From an uncultured archaeon (GTDB lineage: Archaea; Asgardarchaeota; Lokiarchaeia; Sigyniarchaeales; SOKP01), in contig CAZOYD010000087.1 of NCBI GenBank assembly GCA_964583985.1, forward strand, positions 1 through 12,202: a stretch of DNA of 12,202 nt, in the 5' to 3' direction. Below the pieces are notes generated by a model. The model was not told where the DNA came from. It saw only the letters and a program-made list of their open reading frames with translations, and made no database searches. Position numbers and translations under genes: made by a program. Positions within the stretch are counted from its first letter, which is position 1. Every line of letters begins with the position of its first letter. Below, one piece after another: positions 4,447-12,202 of the stretch.

Positions 4447-5343
4447 ATGATAAGTAAAGGAATGGAAGCAGTGATCAAGCTCTTAAAAAACAGTGCTGAC
4501 ACGGTGTTGAAAAATCGGGTGAAAGAATCACGGAAAGGCTTGGATGTGCTAGCATCATTAATAAAGCTTCCAAAAGACATGATCATTGAGGAAGTTAACA
4601 TCGATGGAATGAATGCTGCTTGGATATCCGTTCCATCCTGCACTCCTGATAACGTTGTTTTATACCTCCACGGGGGAGGTTACATCTCGGGTTCTCTCAT
4701 TTCCCATCAAGATCTTGCGATGAGGATCAGTCGAGCAGCAAGAATACGAGTGTTTCTAATAGAATACCGGTTAGCTCCAGAACACCCATTTCCTGCTGCC
4801 CTTGAAGATGCGATCAACGCATATAAGTGGCTAATTAACGATCAGAAAATAAATCCTAAAAAGATCGTGATCGCGGGCGATTCTGCGGGAGGAGGATTGA
4901 CCTTGGTTACATTGATCAAGCTCAGAGATGAGAATATTACGCTACCCGCAGCAGGAGCGTGTCTTTCTCCATGGACTGATCTCGCCTTGACGGGTGAATC
5001 GTTTAAACGGAACGTTAAAATTGATCCCTTTCTAAAAGATTATGATATTTTTTTTATGGCTCGGCAATACGTTGGATATGATGACCCAAAAAACCCATAC
5101 ATATCTCCTTTATACGCAGATTTGCATGACTTGCCGCCAATTCTCATGCATGTTGGAACTAATGAATTAATTCAAGATGATACCACGCGATTTGCCGAAA
5201 AGGCTAAGAAGGCGGGTGTTGATGTTACATTAGAAGTTTTTGATGGGATGATCCACGTTTTCCAAGCGTTCAGTGCCTGGGCTCCAGAAGGTCAAGAAGC
5301 GATTGATAAAATAGGAGAATATATACAAGAAAAGTTAAAATAA
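4447..5343 (+). CDS. Alpha/beta hydrolase, family IV (HSL-like, Abhydrolase_3) esterase/lactonase
   Basis: LYLHGGGY oxyanion motif, YRLAPEHPFPAALED, GDSAGG nucleophile elbow, LSPWTD, SPL and GMIHVF catalytic His region. Confidence 0.94.
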   Translation: MISKGMEAVIKLLKNSADTVLKNRVKESRKGLDVLASLIKLPKDMIIEEVNIDGMNAAWISVPSCTPDNVVLYLHGGGYISGSLISHQDLAMRISRAARIRVFLIEYRLAPEHPFPAALEDAINAYKWLINDQKINPKKIVIAGDSAGGGLTLVTLIKLRDENITLPAAGACLSPWTDLALTGESFKRNVKIDPFLKDYDIFFMARQYVGYDDPKNPYISPLYADLHDLPPILMHVGTNELIQDDTTRFAEKAKKAGVDVTLEVFDGMIHVFQAFSAWAPEGQEAIDKIGEYIQEKLK

Positions 5344-5354
5344 CATTTAGAGAA

Positions 5355-6797
5355 TTATCGAATTTTCTTATCTTCGATTTCAATTCCTAATTCCCGCAGT
5401 TTATTCCGGATTTGATCGCTCATTTCAAATAATTTCTTTTCTCTTAGTTGATCTCTTATAGTCGTGATCAAGTCTACCAAGTTTTTAATCATGACTCCTT
5501 GTTCATCCGAACCACTACCAAGACTTAAAACTTTATTTTCCATATCGGGAAAGACGCCTAAAATAGAATCGATTTTTTCAATAAAATCCACGAACGATTT
5601 TTTAAATGACGCGTTGATTTTTTTTCCATCTTGAAGGATCACTTTATTAATCTCTCGAAATAGCGATAAGATCTCTGCGATTGCGATTGGTGTGTCGAAG
5701 TCATCATCCATGGCTTTAATTATATTTTCAAACGTACCTTCTATTTTTACAATTAGGTCATCCATGTCCTTACTTGCCGTCTTGATAATGGGACTGGTAT
5801 ATATCTTTTTAATCGTATTAAATAATCGATTATATTCTTTTTTCGACTGCTCCAAACTATTTGGTGAATAATTTATAGAACTTCGATAATGGCTCGATAT
5901 TAAATACCACCGAACCACCATCGGATCATATTGTTTTAATATATCTATTGCCAAGAAGTAATTCCCAAGGCTTTTAGACATCTTTTCATCATCTGTATTT
6001 ATGAATCCATTATGGATGAAATAATTCGAAAAGGTTTTGCCGGTATAGGATTCCGATTGCGCGATCTCATTCGGATGGTGTGGAAATTTGAGATCCTGGC
6101 CACCACCATGAATGTCAATGGTTTCTCCCAAGAGGTTAAGTACCATCACGGAGCATTCAATATGCCACCCAGGTCTTCCTTTTCCCCATGGGCTCTCCCA
6201 ATATGGTTCCCCTTCTTTCATTTTTTTCCAGAGTGCAAAATCCTTAGGATCTCGTTTATCTTCTCCAAATTGAGTATCTTGATCTGGTGCTAAATCTGCT
6301 TCATCCCCATTAGATTCGGTCTCTTTAGCTCGTCTGAAAAACGTATTGTATTTTTTATAAGTATTTACCGAAAAATACACTGAACCATTATTTTCATACG
6401 CATTCCCTTTTTTAATGAGTACTTGTATGAAATCGATAATTTTAGGTATGAATTCCGTCGCTCGAGGGTTATATGTATCCGCTTTTACGTTTAATGCACG
6501 CATTATTTCTTCATATTCAAAGATATAAGGTTCACTGAGCTCCTTGTAAGTTATATTCTTTTTATTTGCTCTCTCTATAATTTTATCATCTATGTCGGTA
6601 TAATTCTTTGCTACAAAAACTTTATATCCTTTAAATTGGAGATAACGGTGAATCAAATCAAACACTACAGCAGATTTCACATGACCGATATGCGCGGAAT
6701 CATAAACGGTGGGACCGCACACGTACATTTTAACTTCATTTGAATTGATCGATTTAAACTCTTCCTTTTCAAATGTAAGACTGTTATAGATTTTCAC
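5355..6797 (-). CDS. cysS: Cysteine--tRNA ligase (class I CysRS)
   Basis: MYVCGPTVY, AHIGH, NYTDIDDKII, DFALWK, SPWGKGRPGWHIECS, DIHGGGQDLKFPHHPNE, KMSKSLGN and C-terminal SDQIRNKLRELGIEIED. GTG start with AGGAG 11 nt upstream. Confidence 0.98.
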   Translation of the reverse strand: MKIYNSLTFEKEEFKSINSNEVKMYVCGPTVYDSAHIGHVKSAVVFDLIHRYLQFKGYKVFVAKNYTDIDDKIIERANKKNITYKELSEPYIFEYEEIMRALNVKADTYNPRATEFIPKIIDFIQVLIKKGNAYENNGSVYFSVNTYKKYNTFFRRAKETESNGDEADLAPDQDTQFGEDKRDPKDFALWKKMKEGEPYWESPWGKGRPGWHIECSVMVLNLLGETIDIHGGGQDLKFPHHPNEIAQSESYTGKTFSNYFIHNGFINTDDEKMSKSLGNYFLAIDILKQYDPMVVRWYLISSHYRSSINYSPNSLEQSKKEYNRLFNTIKKIYTSPIIKTASKDMDDLIVKIEGTFENIIKAMDDDFDTPIAIAEILSLFREINKVILQDGKKINASFKKSFVDFIEKIDSILGVFPDMENKVLSLGSGSDEQGVMIKNLVDLITTIRDQLREKKLFEMSDQIRNKLRELGIEIEDKKIR

Positions 6798-6808
6798 GAT
6801 ATTTCAAA

Positions 6809-6815
6809 CTCCTTT
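6809..6815 (-). promoter_or_regulatory. Shine-Dalgarno-like site for cysS
   Basis: The minus strand reads AAAGGAG-N11-GTG. Confidence 0.55.
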
Positions 6816-6850
6816 AAAAAACGTATGATTAATAGCACGATAAATATAAG

Positions 6851-6930
6851 AGCCAGCGATGGGATTTGCACCCATGCTGCTGAAAGCAACGGCTCTGCAG
6901 GCCGCCTCCTTACTACTCGGATACGCTGGC
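6851..6930 (-). tRNA. tRNA-Cys(GCA), atypical: long variable arm, CCA not encoded
   Basis: Minus strand GCCAGCG UA UCC GAGUAGUAA GGA G GCGGC CU-GCA-GA GCCGU UGCUUUCAGCAGC AUGGG UGCAAAU CCCAU CGCUGGC U. It has a 7-bp acceptor stem, 3-bp D stem, 5-bp anticodon stem with GCA (6898-6896) and G37, 5-bp T stem and a U73 discriminator (Cys identity). It lies immediately upstream of cysS. Confidence 0.93.
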
Positions 6931-7043
6931 GTGATTTTCTTAACTAATTTTTTTTAATTAAATTAATGCTTATTATTTTTAAAAAGTAAATTAAGCTAAA
7001 AATTTTTGTTAATGCGTTAAAAAATGTTTATTTTAGACAAATT

Positions 7044-7544
7044 TCAGAACACGCATTTTTTGCAGCATTCCCCAGTTGAATCTAAAATGCAACTTCCAAA
7101 ATTAAAATCAAATGGCAAAACAAAATCGTTTATTACATCGGTAATTATGTCGATATAAACAGCTGAGACATTAGGGTTCTTTCTAAAATGCATATTAACC
7201 ATTTCATCAAGATGGGATAATTTAGAACAAATCACGAGAATACTGAGATTGAAAGTGCCACTCAAACGAAATGCATTTAACATGTATGGACACTGTTTAA
7301 CAAGGTTTATAATCTCTTCAGGTTCTAAAGTCTGAATTTCAATCCGAGCAAAGATTAAATCCATGGTTTTCACGTTTATACCTGCTTGGAATTTTAAAAC
7401 TCCCGCTTTTTCAAGCTTTCGAATTCTCATACCTATCGTGGGTTGGCTTCGATCGACCCTCTTTGCGATTTCTGTATGAGTAAGAGCCGGTTCTTTCTGA
7501 ATTATTTCAATTATGCTCTTATCTATCTCGTCTATATTTATCAA
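7044..7544 (-). CDS. Lrp/AsnC family transcriptional regulator with a Cys-rich C-terminal tail
   Basis: IDEIDKSIIEIIQ...THTEIAKRVDRSQPTIGMRIRKLEKAGVL HTH, then a RAM-like domain (AFRLSGTFNL) and the tail CILDSTGECCKKC. TTG start. Confidence 0.92.
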   Translation of the reverse strand: MINIDEIDKSIIEIIQKEPALTHTEIAKRVDRSQPTIGMRIRKLEKAGVLKFQAGINVKTMDLIFARIEIQTLEPEEIINLVKQCPYMLNAFRLSGTFNLSILVICSKLSHLDEMVNMHFRKNPNVSAVYIDIITDVINDFVLPFDFNFGSCILDSTGECCKKCVF

Positions 7545-7721: not shown

Positions 7722-8057
7722 ATGAGTGACCTAAAAACAGACTTTATAAAGTTTTTAAAAGTTTTAGCAGATCAAACGCGATTGGATATTTTAGAGTTAT
7801 TGCGATATGAAAAAAAGACTGCTTCTGAAATTCAATCGGCGTTAAGCAAATCTCAATCGACGATTTCTCAACATTTACAGACTCTATCTAATAAAAATCT
7901 AATTATTCTTGAAAAAATAGACAATGTTAATACTTATACCATCAAAGATCCCGATATTTTTAAGCTCTTTTTAGAAATTAATTATTTTGTTATGAAAATT
8001 AATCAAGAAAAACTTAAAGATCTTAGAGATTTGGATGTTATCGATACATTATTATGA
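7722..8057 (+). CDS. ArsR/SmtB family winged-helix regulator
   Basis: FLKVLADQTRLDILELL...TASEI...SQSTISQHLQTL...LI. Divergent from the Lrp gene. Confidence 0.92.
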   Translation: MSDLKTDFIKFLKVLADQTRLDILELLRYEKKTASEIQSALSKSQSTISQHLQTLSNKNLIILEKIDNVNTYTIKDPDIFKLFLEINYFVMKINQEKLKDLRDLDVIDTLL

Positions 8058-8067
8058 TCAATCCATA

Positions 8068-8634
8068 ATGATTCACGTATTTAAAAGTTCAACGATGACA
8101 GAAAAAATATCACTTGGAATAAAGAAAGTACTATTGATGGGATTAGATAACTCTGGTAAGACATCCATCGCTTTGTGTTTAATGGGAGTGAAGCACTTGT
8201 CATCTTTTTCTTCGCTAAATCCTACTAGAGGAGTTAAAATCGATAAATTCCAAGCATTGAATTCAGAATTCAGCATTTGGGATTTCGGTGGTCAAGAACA
8301 ATTTCGAGAAGGTTATTTAAATGACTTTCAAACCCATATTAAAGGAACCAAGAAATTTTTTTACGTTTTGGACATCCAAGATCGAGAGAGATACGAGGTT
8401 TCATTAGAATATTTAGGGAAAATTGTATCTCTATTAAAAAAATACAAGATAAGTATTGAATTTTCCATATTTTTACATAAATATGATCCCGATTTGGAAA
8501 TCAAAAATTCTAAATTTTATGAAAGAGAGATCAATGAGTTGATAAAGAGCATAAAAAGAATAATTCCAATCGACTTTCCTTACCAAATTTACAAGACTTC
8601 AATTTATACTGTTTTTCAGAAAACATCATTATAA
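8068..8634 (+). CDS. Small Ras-superfamily GTPase, Rag (Gtr1/RagA)/Arf-like
   Basis: G1 KKVLLMGLDNSGKTS, G2 PT, G3 IWDFGGQ, G4 FLHKYD, G5 KTSIY. The ORF-track start at 8035 overlaps the ArsR gene, so ATG 8068 or 8095 is more likely. Confidence 0.93.
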   Translation: MIHVFKSSTMTEKISLGIKKVLLMGLDNSGKTSIALCLMGVKHLSSFSSLNPTRGVKIDKFQALNSEFSIWDFGGQEQFREGYLNDFQTHIKGTKKFFYVLDIQDRERYEVSLEYLGKIVSLLKKYKISIEFSIFLHKYDPDLEIKNSKFYEREINELIKSIKRIIPIDFPYQIYKTSIYTVFQKTSL

Positions 8635-8831: not shown

Positions 8832-10913
8832 ATGATCAGCATTGTTATTTCAGGTGGTATTTTTCTTATCGGTTGGCACTCAAGAAAGTACATGGATAGT
8901 TCCTTCTTTTTAATAATAGGGATTGCCATTCTCTTCACAAGTGGAATTGATTTGCTTCACACCTTGGCTTACACTGGAATGGGAGTCTTTCCTGAATTTG
9001 ATTCAGATCTCCCCACACAATTATGGATTGCCGCTCGATATTGGCAAGCATTCTCTTATTTAATAGCAACTTTTTTTATAAAAAAAAAGATCAAGCATAC
9101 TTATTTATTCTTTATCAATATCATTATATTTTTGGTAATATTGAATCTAATTTTTGGAGGTATCTTCCCCACATGCTACCTCGAAGGCTCTGGTTTAACC
9201 TTATTTAAGAAAATCAGCGAATATGTGATTGATGTAATTTTTTTACTTGCATTAATAGTTTTATATACACATAAAGAGGAGTTCAATCAGAAAGTGTTTC
9301 TTTTAATCACTGTCTCTATTATCACCACTATGATTTCAGAATTAGCATTTACTGTTTACATTAGCGTGTTTGATATTTCAAATTTTATAGGGCATATTTT
9401 TAAAATTATAGCATTTTTCTTCTTGTATAAGGCTATAATCGAATCGGGAATAGAGACACCTTTTGATTTATTGTTTAGGAAGTTGAAATTAAATGAGGAA
9501 ACTTTAATTAACAATGCTATGAAATTGGAAAAAGCCTACTCTGAATTTAACCAAATATTTAACGCTTCTCTACCATTAAGGGTAATAAACAAAAACTACG
9601 ATATTATTAGAGTCAACGATACTTACGCATCCCTCTTCTGCTTATCCAAAGAAGAAATTATCGGTAAAAAATGCTACGACCTTAAATTAGGTTATGAAAA
9701 CCGTTGCCATACCGAAAACTGTTCAATGTATCAAATTAATGAAGGAAAGGTGTATCATGAATACGAGTTAGAAACAATTTTCGCTGATGGAACGAAACTT
9801 GTTAATCTTGCGAGAACAGTTCCCAATAGAGACCCAAATGGTGAATTCATTGGAATTATTCAAAATTATATAGATATAACCGAAAATAAAACCAATCAAG
9901 AAAAACTACAGGTTATGGCAAGGTTTCCAATGGAAAATCCTAATCCTGTGCTGAGAGTGAGTCAAAAATACGTTCTTTTAGCAAATAAAGCGAGTCAGAA
10001 ATTATTTTTAATTGAAGAAGGGAGAAGAGTGCCTGAGATTTTACATGAATATATCAATAAATCCTTATCTGAGAATCAAAATTTAAATTTTGAGTTGAAT
10101 ATTGGAGATCAAATTTATTCGCTGTTTATTGTGCCAATAATAGAAAGTGGATATGCAAATATTTATGGTTTAAACATAACAGCTAGAAAGGAAGCAGAAA
10201 GAAGTTTGAAACGCTTTGTTTCAACAGTCTCTCATGAATTAAGAACACCAGTTTCAGTACTGATTATGTCAATTGATTTTTTAGAGAATCATTCTGATAA
10301 AGTCACTCCAGAAGTAAACAAGAAATTACAAGATGGAATCAAAAAAAACATTTTACTTTTAAAGATATTGATTGATGATATCTTAACATTATCCCGATTA
10401 GATAAGCATGAAGTACAAATAAAATGGATAGAATATAATCCACTTTCAATTGTTGAAAACATTTTAACTTTGATGGAACCTATTGGCAATGATAAAAATA
10501 TTACTTTTAATATTGCTGTCGAAGAAAATATAAAACTTTATGGAGATCCAACAAAAATTGAACAATTATTCCGTATTTTTATCGATAATGCATTAAAATA
10601 TTCAAAAGAAAATAGTAAAATAGAGATTACTGCTATTAATCATTATAAGAGAAAATACAACATTGATGAAAAAGACGGAGTTTTATTTGAATTTAAAGAC
10701 TATGGTGTAGGAATCAAGGAAGAAGATTTACCTTCTATTTTTGAAAGATTTTTTAGATCTGAACAAGTAAGTGATATTCCAGGAACGGGTTTGGGATTAG
10801 CCATCGCCAAAGAATTAATAAAACTTCATGATGGAGAAGTATGGGTTCAAAGTGAATACGGAAAAGGATCCACTTTTTCTATTTTTCTACCAATAATTAT
10901 AAAAAAAAGGTAA
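8832..10913 (+). CDS. Membrane sensor histidine kinase: MASE3 - PAS - PAS - HisKA - HATPase (true N-terminus probably upstream of 8832)
   Basis: MASE3-like motifs DLLHTLAYTGMGVF, TQLWIAARY, SELAFT and NFIGHIFKII. PAS segments end in DITENK and NITARK. H-box SHELRTP (His codon 10233), N-box DNALKY, G1 DYGVG, F-box FERFF, G2 GTGLGL and GKGSTF. The same frame continues upstream as ...NYLLFHSIAE. Confidence 0.95.
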   Translation: MISIVISGGIFLIGWHSRKYMDSSFFLIIGIAILFTSGIDLLHTLAYTGMGVFPEFDSDLPTQLWIAARYWQAFSYLIATFFIKKKIKHTYLFFINIIIFLVILNLIFGGIFPTCYLEGSGLTLFKKISEYVIDVIFLLALIVLYTHKEEFNQKVFLLITVSIITTMISELAFTVYISVFDISNFIGHIFKIIAFFFLYKAIIESGIETPFDLLFRKLKLNEETLINNAMKLEKAYSEFNQIFNASLPLRVINKNYDIIRVNDTYASLFCLSKEEIIGKKCYDLKLGYENRCHTENCSMYQINEGKVYHEYELETIFADGTKLVNLARTVPNRDPNGEFIGIIQNYIDITENKTNQEKLQVMARFPMENPNPVLRVSQKYVLLANKASQKLFLIEEGRRVPEILHEYINKSLSENQNLNFELNIGDQIYSLFIVPIIESGYANIYGLNITARKEAERSLKRFVSTVSHELRTPVSVLIMSIDFLENHSDKVTPEVNKKLQDGIKKNILLLKILIDDILTLSRLDKHEVQIKWIEYNPLSIVENILTLMEPIGNDKNITFNIAVEENIKLYGDPTKIEQLFRIFIDNALKYSKENSKIEITAINHYKRKYNIDEKDGVLFEFKDYGVGIKEEDLPSIFERFFRSEQVSDIPGTGLGLAIAKELIKLHDGEVWVQSEYGKGSTFSIFLPIIIKKR

Positions 10914-10967: not shown

Positions 10968-11870
10968 TTGAAACCATTAATTTTAATTGTTGAGGACAAC
11001 GTAGATTTATCATATAACTTAAAGCTAATGATAGATTCAAACAATTATGACGCAGTTATAGCAAAAAACGGGAAGGCAGCTCTGAAGATTTTATCGAATC
11101 TTAAACAGGTTCCTGATATTATTATTAGTGATATAATTATGCCTGAAATGGATGGGTATGAATTTTTCAGAGAGATCTCCAAAGAACCAAAATGGAATCG
11201 GATTCCTTTTGTTTTTCTTTCCGCACGTACAGCTCCTAAAGATATTAGGCTTGGAAGATTATTAGGAGCAGATGATTATTTAACAAAACCTTTCGACGAA
11301 AAAGACTTATTAGCTATTATTTCGGGGAAAATAGCCCGAATTAACAGGATAAACGTATTAAATAATAAAATCGATGAAATTTTCAAGGGTATGAATATCG
11401 AAGTTAAAAAGCCAATTACAAAACATCAAACGTCATATCCTTGCTTGTTAGTAACTTTTTGGGACGATAAGTTTGGTCCTGAATTAAAGCTCTATCACCC
11501 TAAACAGACTAATTTTTCCATTTCTTTGGAGAATATCGCAGCGCAGTTATTTACAGTAGCAACTTCTATTTATGGTAATGATAAAATTTCTAAAGCAGAA
11601 GGGGTTTTATTAAATATCGATAATCTGAATAATCGTGGGTATTTATTTTTTGATTCTTTTCCTGAAATAGATGAAAGATTTGGAGAAAAACAATACATGA
11701 TTGCAATTATCGCTCCATTCATTAATTATTTTCATACATTAGAGATTAGAGAGATATTTATCGATATATCTGATAAAATTAAATGTAAATTGAATTGGAA
11801 CATTGAGAAATATTGGAAAAAAATTTATGACATTTTATCATTAGAGACACCACAGATAGAATCCCATTAA
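10968..11870 (+). CDS. Response regulator: receiver domain fused to a putative longin/uDENN (NPRL2/FLCN/SMCR8-like) output domain
   Basis: REC: ILIVEDN, IISD55IIMPEMDG, FLSA, GADDYLTK107PF. Residues about 157-291 carry WDDKFGP...YHP and a beta-beta-alpha-beta-beta-beta-alpha-alpha pattern. TTG start. The REC call is secure; the longin call is by pattern recognition. Confidence 0.9.
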   Translation: MKPLILIVEDNVDLSYNLKLMIDSNNYDAVIAKNGKAALKILSNLKQVPDIIISDIIMPEMDGYEFFREISKEPKWNRIPFVFLSARTAPKDIRLGRLLGADDYLTKPFDEKDLLAIISGKIARINRINVLNNKIDEIFKGMNIEVKKPITKHQTSYPCLLVTFWDDKFGPELKLYHPKQTNFSISLENIAAQLFTVATSIYGNDKISKAEGVLLNIDNLNNRGYLFFDSFPEIDERFGEKQYMIAIIAPFINYFHTLEIREIFIDISDKIKCKLNWNIEKYWKKIYDILSLETPQIESH

Positions 11871-11911: not shown

Positions 11912-12202
11912 TCAAAAATGAAATAATTCAGTCGATAAATATTTCTCTCCACCATCAGGTAAGAGAACCACAATATTATCATTTTCATTAAAATCTTTTG
12001 AAACTTCATGAATAGCAGCCCATGCACTTGCACCTGATGAAATTCCTGCAAAAATGCCTTCTAATCTCGCTAATTTTCTAGCAGTTGCTATAGCATCTTC
12101 AAATTCAACAGCAATCACTTTTTCATAGATTTTAGTATTCAATACTTCAGGAATAAAACCTGCTCCAATCCCTTGAATTTTATGAGGTCCAGGAGATCCC
12201 CC
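11912..12202 (-). CDS. cysK: Cysteine synthase A (O-acetylserine sulfhydrylase), 3' portion; the gene runs off the window edge
   Basis: The frame is open to the window end: [21 protein letters not shown]...[15 protein letters not shown]...[30 protein letters not shown] is the CysK-type signature. Confidence 0.93.

Follow-up and report, generated by a model that had tools for sequence, protein, structure and literature searches.

In eukaryotes, nutrient signalling through TORC1 depends on longin GTPase-activating proteins (GAPs), GATOR1 and FLCN-FNIP, that act on the Rag GTPases. Described longin GAP complexes include FLCN-FNIP2 (Lst7-Lst4 in yeast), which acts on RagC/D, NPRL2-NPRL3, which acts on RagA/B, and C9orf72-SMCR8, which acts on ARF. 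Here we analyse a stretch of 12,202 nucleotides from an uncultured archaeon of the lineage Asgardarchaeota; Lokiarchaeia; Sigyniarchaeales (positions 1 to 12,202 of contig CAZOYD010000087.1, GenBank assembly GCA_964583985.1; hereafter the window), which is AT-rich and encodes a response regulator of 300 amino acids (aa). The closest relatives of the encoded proteins point to a Loki-type (Promethearchaeota) Asgard archaeon. The output domain of the regulator does not belong to the DNA-binding kind; its fold, two sequence motifs, the position of an arginine in a particular loop and the conservation of these features together support its assignment to the folliculin/NPRL2/SMCR8/C9orf72 (GAP-type) class of longins, and the gene belongs to a conserved cassette that also encodes a small Rag-like GTPase.

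Several properties of the known GAP-type longins bear on this comparison. In SMCR8, R147 lies in the loop βL4-βL5 and is equivalent to FLCN R164; GAP activity is seen when C9orf72 is combined with the SMCR8 longin, but with neither of the two on its own (bioRxiv 10.1101/2020.04.16.045708). A GP motif, found in the loop before strand β2 or at the start of that strand, occurs in FLCN, NPRL2, SMCR8 and C9orf72 and is missing from FNIP2, NPRL3 and non-GAP longins; it sits spatially beside the arginine finger, and W33-D34 of C9orf72 is essential (PMC12290439). The W33G/D34K mutant of C9orf72 has lost its GAP activity towards ARF1 (PMC8213707).

In Asgard archaea, NPRL2-like longins fused to two-component domains have been described (Liu et al., bioRxiv 10.1101/2020.10.19.343400, Fig. 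5c; later Nature 2021), and the same preprint argues that Asgard growth control stayed centred on two-component systems. Asgard longins with a GP motif and an arginine finger have been proposed to share ancestry with the GAP longins of eukaryotes and perhaps to act as GAPs themselves (Traffic 2025, PMC12290439). The GTPase genes of strain MK-D1 are generally not found in the same operon as genes for longins or roadblocks (Tran et al., PMC10933270). Outside this phylum, bacterial MglA is controlled by platforms of the roadblock/longin superfamily, namely the roadblock GAP MglB and the response-regulator complex RomR-RomX; the latter and the thaumarchaeotal REC-NitrOD3 proteins, which have a roadblock-like output domain (PMC5847659), are precedents for a receiver linked to such a platform. 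A census of response regulators in archaea from 2018 contained no REC-longin protein, only the roadblock-like REC-NitrOD3.

We modelled residues 150-300 of the window protein with AlphaFold2 from a 98-row alignment (mean predicted local distance difference test score, pLDDT, 92.3; predicted template modelling score 0.87). The model contains five strands (β1 159-166, β2 170-177, β3 211-217, β4 222-232, β5 240-249) and three helices (α1 187-202, α2 254-272, α3 279-291), with no helix at the N-terminus and two at the C-terminus, as in the longin topology, and with residues 233-239 forming the loop between β4 and β5. A preliminary description of this DNA, made from the letters alone, had proposed the same elements in the same order, and the peptides it quoted agree with the translation of the open reading frame (ORF). 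It had located the region correctly, but its start, position 11436, corresponds to Y157, and the first strand (CLLVTF) begins only at C159 (11442).

A Foldseek search of the PDB returned FLCN-FNIP2, GATOR1, the SEA complex, a Loki roadblock-longin protein and Lst4 in the top ranks. We compared the model by VIA-align with Foldseek's candidates and, in an independent run, with 48,161 representative chains; short sequence look-ups confirmed which chains are FLCN, C9orf72 and NPRL2/Npr2. The Lst4 longin scored highest (13.0 and 12.3), followed by the Loki roadblock-longin protein 8yqg (11.9), a probable folliculin (8dhb_J, 11.8), folliculin itself (6nzd_H and 6ulg_L, 11.2), C9orf72 (7o2w_A, 11.2), the GATOR1 chains (9.6-10.2), 6lt0_B, which is probably SMCR8 (10.0), FNIP2 (6ulg_N, 10.0) and yeast Npr2 (9.3). 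Other longins (TRAPP, VAMP7, DENND1, CPLANE) scored 8-9.9, roadblocks (LAMTOR, MglB, Asgard roadblocks and the C-terminal domains of Rags) about 7-8.6, and the first PAS/GAF-like entry 6.8. The nearest solved structures are thus those of the FLCN/NPRL2/SMCR8/C9orf72 group and not other longins, roadblocks or PAS/GAF domains. Because the rankings favour folliculin-group longins, the best match to a non-longin fold that the preliminary description had named as grounds for abandoning its assignment did not occur, and we rejected the readings of the domain as a PAS/GAF sensor, a roadblock of the MglB kind or a SNARE-type longin, all of which scored lower.

The motifs that distinguish GAP-type longins are present in the window protein. 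The window protein reads F-W165-D166-D-K-F-G170-P171...P178, and G170-P171 falls at the start of β2. The PDB sequence of C9orf72 reads F-A-Y-W33-D34-N-I-L-G38-P39...P47 and that of NPRL2 F15-H-P-T-L-G20-P21...P28, so that the spacing from the aromatic residue to the glycine is 5 in all three proteins and that between the two prolines is 7 in the window protein, as in NPRL2. W165-D166 and G170-P171 are in register with the published WD and GP motifs of GAP-type longins, the kind of start that the preliminary description had named. Within the 98-row family alignment W165 is conserved in 97%, G170 in 95%, P171 in 93% and P178 in 90% of the sequences. In the canonical order of the longin sheet the β1-β2 and β4-β5 loops are neighbours on the same sheet edge, which fits the published arrangement of GP motif and arginine finger.

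R237, encoded by AGA at the codon that had been given for it, falls in the model in the β4-β5 loop, the loop of SMCR8 R147 and FLCN R164, where the catalytic subunits alone have a conserved arginine. The family consensus over this region is F-D...D233-x3-R237-G-G-x-K/R241-x-F/Y243-M-L, and residues 156-178 of FLCN include F-F-I-K-D160-S-L-A-R164-G-F-Q-R168-W-Y170-S-I-I (PDB sequence); the two share the register D(0), R(+4), G(+5), K/R(+8) and aromatic(+10) into β5. R78 of NPRL2 likewise stands two residues ahead of a hydrophobic strand. R237 does not vary among 25 orthologues (64-76% identity), and in an alignment anchored on a hidden Markov model of the family the column is arginine in 103 of 133 members (77%).

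Relatives of the domain were collected by searching with residues 150-300 against 1.84 billion cluster representatives (E<=1e-3). The family comprises 154 clusters at 50% identity, is present in 89 of the 300 genomes that were sampled from this phylum and carries the signature W165, D166, G170, P171, P178, F228-D229, R237, M244 and Y254. Since the domain defines a family of this size in which W165, G170, P171 and P178 are near-invariant, the longin-domain pattern is not due to chance. The whole regulator has 167 orthologues at 62-75% identity, mostly of 298 aa, which public records name merely 'response regulator' or 'CheY-like'. Searches by sequence found little else: with Pfam the 300-aa protein matched only REC and its C-terminal half had no match (E<=0.1), the domain had no match in NCBIfam and only a chance one in the PDB with phmmer (E=0.49), and the full-length relative P0261 gave predominantly REC matches in the PDB. 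A cluster of language-model neighbours, in which 19% of the members carry NPR2, is a lead only. Two giant immunoglobulin/cadherin repeat proteins returned by the representative search (P0247 and P0267, of 2736 and 1482 aa) were discarded as spurious.

A second line of evidence is the association of the domain with small GTPases. We examined 40 loci at which other genomes of the phylum encode a family member, in windows of +/-9 kb, together with 20 control windows elsewhere in the same genomes, identifying GTPases by the same phmmer search. A small GTPase lies near 27 of the 40 loci and in one of the 20 controls (Fisher p=4e-6, a value that overstates independence because the loci are related); the genome of the window has 30 GTPase ORFs of this kind in 3.8 Mb. 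The adjacency holds across at least four gene orders: ArsR-GTPase-histidine kinase-response regulator in the orthologous cassettes, ArsR-GTPase-response regulator in L085, a response regulator directly followed by the GTPase in L037, L086 and L095, and, in another family, Rag-like GTPases of 414-462 aa beside a response regulator or a stand-alone longin (L048, L050, L051). The GTPases adjacent to the paralogues again have Gtr1_RagA as their top Pfam match. Natural fusions of GTPase and longin also exist, with a Ras-like GTPase in P0156 and Arf-like ones in P0171 and P0258. Another contig of the window's own genome (C107; L053:2070-5438, minus strand) encodes a protein of 1123 aa with an Arf-like GTPase, a longin, two PAS domains and HATPase_c, laid out as an unassigned N-terminal region of ~145 aa, the GTPase at 146-307 and the longin at ~320-403; this longin retains W-D...G and D-x3-R-G-G (hhalign probability 96.5%), and similar ORFs of 1126-1148 aa are found in many genomes of the family. 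Finally, in five genomes of the same family (90-100% complete) the regulator is missing and so is an orthologue of the short GTPase, the best GTPase matches there being 36-40% identical and residing in ORFs of at least 314 aa.

The local cassette consists of four co-oriented genes, for an ArsR-type regulator, the small GTPase, a histidine kinase and the response regulator (Table 1). The GTPase contains the motifs GLDNSGKT, switch-I T44, WDFGGQ with the catalytic glutamine, the Rag-type HKYD and TSIY, and it keeps the G3 glutamine (DFGGQ) that is the partner residue of arginine-finger GAPs. Its closest PDB relatives are the Loki Rag-like structures 8yl2 (7e-26) and 8zla/9m28 (1.6e-22), followed by Arl3 and RagC/Gtr1. 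Its start is ambiguous among the ATG codons at 8035, which overlaps the end of the ArsR gene, 8068 and 8095; we favour 8095 or 8068 because most orthologues have 179-183 aa. At 179-199 aa, depending on the start, and 175-184 aa in orthologues, the protein lacks the C-terminal roadblock domain of Rags, and since the Rag-type G domain is present and this domain absent we call it Rag-like and not a full Rag.

The response-regulator ORF begins with TTG. Its receiver has the acidic pocket, the phospho-acceptor aspartate and the conserved Ser/Thr and Lys of the REC family, with E9, D10, D55, S85 and K107 invariant in 25 orthologues, and thus carries every residue required for phosphorylation; the role of D55 is one that we take from general knowledge of REC domains. 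A histidine kinase gene lies directly upstream of the regulator gene, here and in orthologous loci, where the ORFs for the kinase are between 645 and 964 aa long. In a full-length AlphaFold2 model (25-row alignment, mean pLDDT 70), which is of moderate quality and poorer in the longin part than the domain-only run, helix α5 of the receiver extends into the linker, and residues 142-158 are of low confidence (pLDDT <50 for 142-155). We used this model for the linker helix only and not for the packing of receiver against longin.

Table 1. Positions in the window of the response regulator, its parts and the other genes of the cassette
Feature	Position	Strand	Basis
Response-regulator gene, 300 aa; receiver, linker helix and longin domain	10968..11870	+	ORF, translation, orthologues
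Receiver (REC) domain, residues 5-118	10980..11321	+	Pfam PF00072, E=4.5e-24
D55 (GAT), predicted phospho-acceptor aspartate, SDIIMP context	11130..11132	+	invariant in orthologue alignment
Long helix, residues 111-141, REC α5 extended into the linker	11298..11390	+	full-length AlphaFold2 model
Longin domain, residues 159-291, β-β-α-β-β-β-α-α	11442..11840	+	AlphaFold2 model
W165-D166-D-K-F-G170-P171, WD and GP motif, end of β1 and start of β2	11460..11480	+	98-row family alignment
β4-β5 loop and start of β5, residues 233-243 (E-I-D-E-R237-F-G-E-K-Q-Y)	11664..11696	+	column counts
R237 (AGA), candidate arginine finger	11676..11678	+	conservation, loop position
ArsR-type helix-turn-helix regulator, first gene of the cassette	7722..8057	+	Pfam HTH_5, 4.6e-12; position kept in orthologous cassettes
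Small Rag-like GTPase, ~179 aa, G domain only, candidate client	8095..8634	+	Pfam Gtr1_RagA 5e-23, Arf 5e-17
MASE3-PAS-HisKA-HATPase sensor histidine kinase, presumed cognate kinase	8832..10913	+	Pfam

The surroundings of the cassette are also partly conserved. Regions on the minus strand of the window (5355-7544 and 11912-12202) contain Lrp/AsnC, cysS and cysK; flanking cysS and cysK are kept throughout the genus and to some extent in the next one, and a divergently transcribed Lrp/AsnC gene stands beside the ArsR gene in each of the six orthologous cassettes that we inspected (L033-L036, L039, L040). A link of the cassette to amino-acid or cysteine status is possible.

The longin family also occurs in other arrangements. 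Proteins of ~640-690 aa carry an N-terminal family longin followed by TPR repeats (L054:3983-5911, plus strand; L055:2998-5043 and 5058-7127, plus strand), a class that occurs throughout another of the phylum's families, with tandem copies in L055. Two REC-longin genes stand in tandem at L092:8509-10380 (plus strand) and could encode heterodimer partners, and at L091:8524-9408 (plus strand) a receiver (147 aa) and a longin (131 aa) are encoded by two neighbouring ORFs, so that the gene is either split or frameshifted. Orthologues of regulator and GTPase deposited as 'Candidatus Nanopelagicaceae bacterium' (P0119, P0273) probably derive from a mis-binned Asgard contig.

From these observations, we consider a GAP function of the regulator plausible, though putative, and propose the following mechanism. 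The adjacent MASE3-PAS histidine kinase would phosphorylate D55, which would alter the oligomeric state of the regulator, most likely through homodimerization mediated by the receiver and the linker helix. The homodimer would form a two-longin platform like the longin dimers of FLCN-FNIP, NPRL2-NPRL3 and C9orf72-SMCR8, and this platform would bind the cassette's own Rag-like GTPase in a pocket lined by the WD/GP hairpins. R237 would then extend from the β4-β5 loop to the nucleotide and, acting as an arginine finger, promote the hydrolysis of GTP. We favour homodimerization induced by phosphorylation because the receiver is intact, a kinase gene lies upstream, a helix of 30 residues follows the receiver and, in eukaryotes, C9orf72 and the SMCR8 longin are active only as a pair. 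The window protein differs from the eukaryotic GAPs in that a C9orf72-like WD and an SMCR8/FLCN-like arginine are combined in a single chain, which itself suggests a homodimer and not a pair of catalytic and non-catalytic subunits. We stress that binding of the GTPase, the GAP direction, catalysis by R237 and control by dimerization are steps that we infer; taken as a whole, a phosphorylation-driven homodimer with R237 as finger is the account that we place first, at a little short of an even chance.

A number of results weigh against this account. The window domain has no match (E<=0.1) to the Pfam families Folliculin (PF11704), NPR2 (PF06218) and C9orf72-like (PF15019); the sole relative to match Folliculin, P0261, does so weakly (E=0.003) and under the curated cut-off, and a 20-row profile of the domain found nothing in the PDB but designed helical proteins (E>1). 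The top structural match, Lst4, is a non-catalytic partner of the FNIP type. Around R237 the window protein departs from both the family consensus and FLCN at two positions, with E233 in place of D and F238 in place of G. About 23% of the family have replaced or deleted R237. The members without arginine have mostly shortened or acidic loops, a pattern that would be expected if catalytic and non-catalytic paralogues coexist as they do in eukaryotes. No GTPase and no kinase is encoded within 9 kb of the REC-longin paralogues at L038, L041, L081, L082, L084 and L097; this subfamily is divergent, with domain E-values of 1e-12 to 1e-17 against the window protein. In eukaryotes, longin GAPs form heterodimers that include DENN domains, whereas the window protein ends 9 residues past helix α3, leaving it without a DENN or an NPRL-specific C-terminal domain. 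Yeast Lst7 is also longin-only, so that DENN is not universal. Lastly, most longin/roadblock platforms are guanine nucleotide exchange factors (GEFs) or scaffolds and not GAPs.

This last point leads to the strongest alternative, in which the longin is a phosphorylation-controlled GEF, effector or scaffold platform for the Rag-like GTPase and R237 has a structural or interface role. Mon1-Ccz1, TRAPP, Ragulator and RomR-RomX provide precedents. However, the combination of a GP motif with a loop arginine has been reported for GAP-type longins only, the best structural matches are longins of GAP complexes and not of GEFs, and the cDENN and dDENN modules, which account for the bulk of the contacts with Rab in DENN GEFs, are absent. 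We regard this alternative as unlikely, though not negligible.

The truncation of the GTPase allows a different reading, in which the longin of the regulator supplies in trans the roadblock dimerization platform that the GTPase has lost, and phosphorylation controls the assembly or localization of a split Rag-like dimer and not catalysis. The shortness of the GTPase in the orthologous cassettes would suit such a division of labour; the C-terminal domains of Rags are among the low-scoring structural comparisons, and we consider the idea improbable. Equally little can be said for a longin that does not act on the GTPase at all, as a protein-protein or membrane-targeting module (SNARE-like or adaptor-sigma-like) or a small-ligand sensor beside a merely co-transcribed GTPase, a reading to which the paralogues with no GTPase nearby lend some weight and against which the recurrent adjacency in different gene orders argues.

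Returning to the homodimeric GAP, the closest described proteins are the fusions of Liu et al., which share the architecture class and the phylum and of which the window protein is most simply a member; the text of that preprint, in the part concerned with these fusions, contains neither a conserved cassette with a truncated Rag-like GTPase nor REC-fused WD/GP/Arg motifs. In the Asgard longins of PMC12290439 the GP motif and loop arginine are arranged as in the window protein. That study drew on 15 deposited models, notably from Heimdallarchaeia, and left the client GTPase explicitly open, whereas here the domain is fused to a receiver and encoded beside a specific Rag-like GTPase. Neither the longin domain class nor the two-component fusion class is therefore new. 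What the analysis contributes is that a REC-fused subfamily unites WD, GP and Arg in one chain, and that a conserved cassette pairs a REC-longin protein with a specific Rag-like GTPase lacking its C-terminal domain. Fusion to a two-component receiver and a kinship that sequence profiles do not detect further separate the window protein from the eukaryotic GAPs.

Combining these elements, we tentatively picture a bacterial-style His-Asp phosphorelay that switches a eukaryote-type Rag-like GTPase through the phosphorylation-driven assembly of a homodimeric longin GAP, in which a single chain would bear both the C9orf72-like WD/GP face and the FLCN/SMCR8-like arginine finger. Such a system would be a living model for the ancestor, not yet differentiated, of GATOR1, FLCN-FNIP and C9orf72-SMCR8, perhaps tied to amino-acid (cysteine) status since Lrp, cysS and cysK are conserved at its flanks; we think this broader picture possible but doubtful. 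The cassette is an exception to the unpaired GTPase genes of Asgard archaea, consisting of a small, soluble Rag-like GTPase that is a G domain only, a two-domain regulator and an on/off handle in the form of aspartate phosphorylation, and this simplicity makes the GAP and arginine-finger hypothesis testable with three recombinant proteins. If the hypothesis is true, the GAP chemistry of longins would predate eukaryotes and would first have been controlled by two-component signalling.
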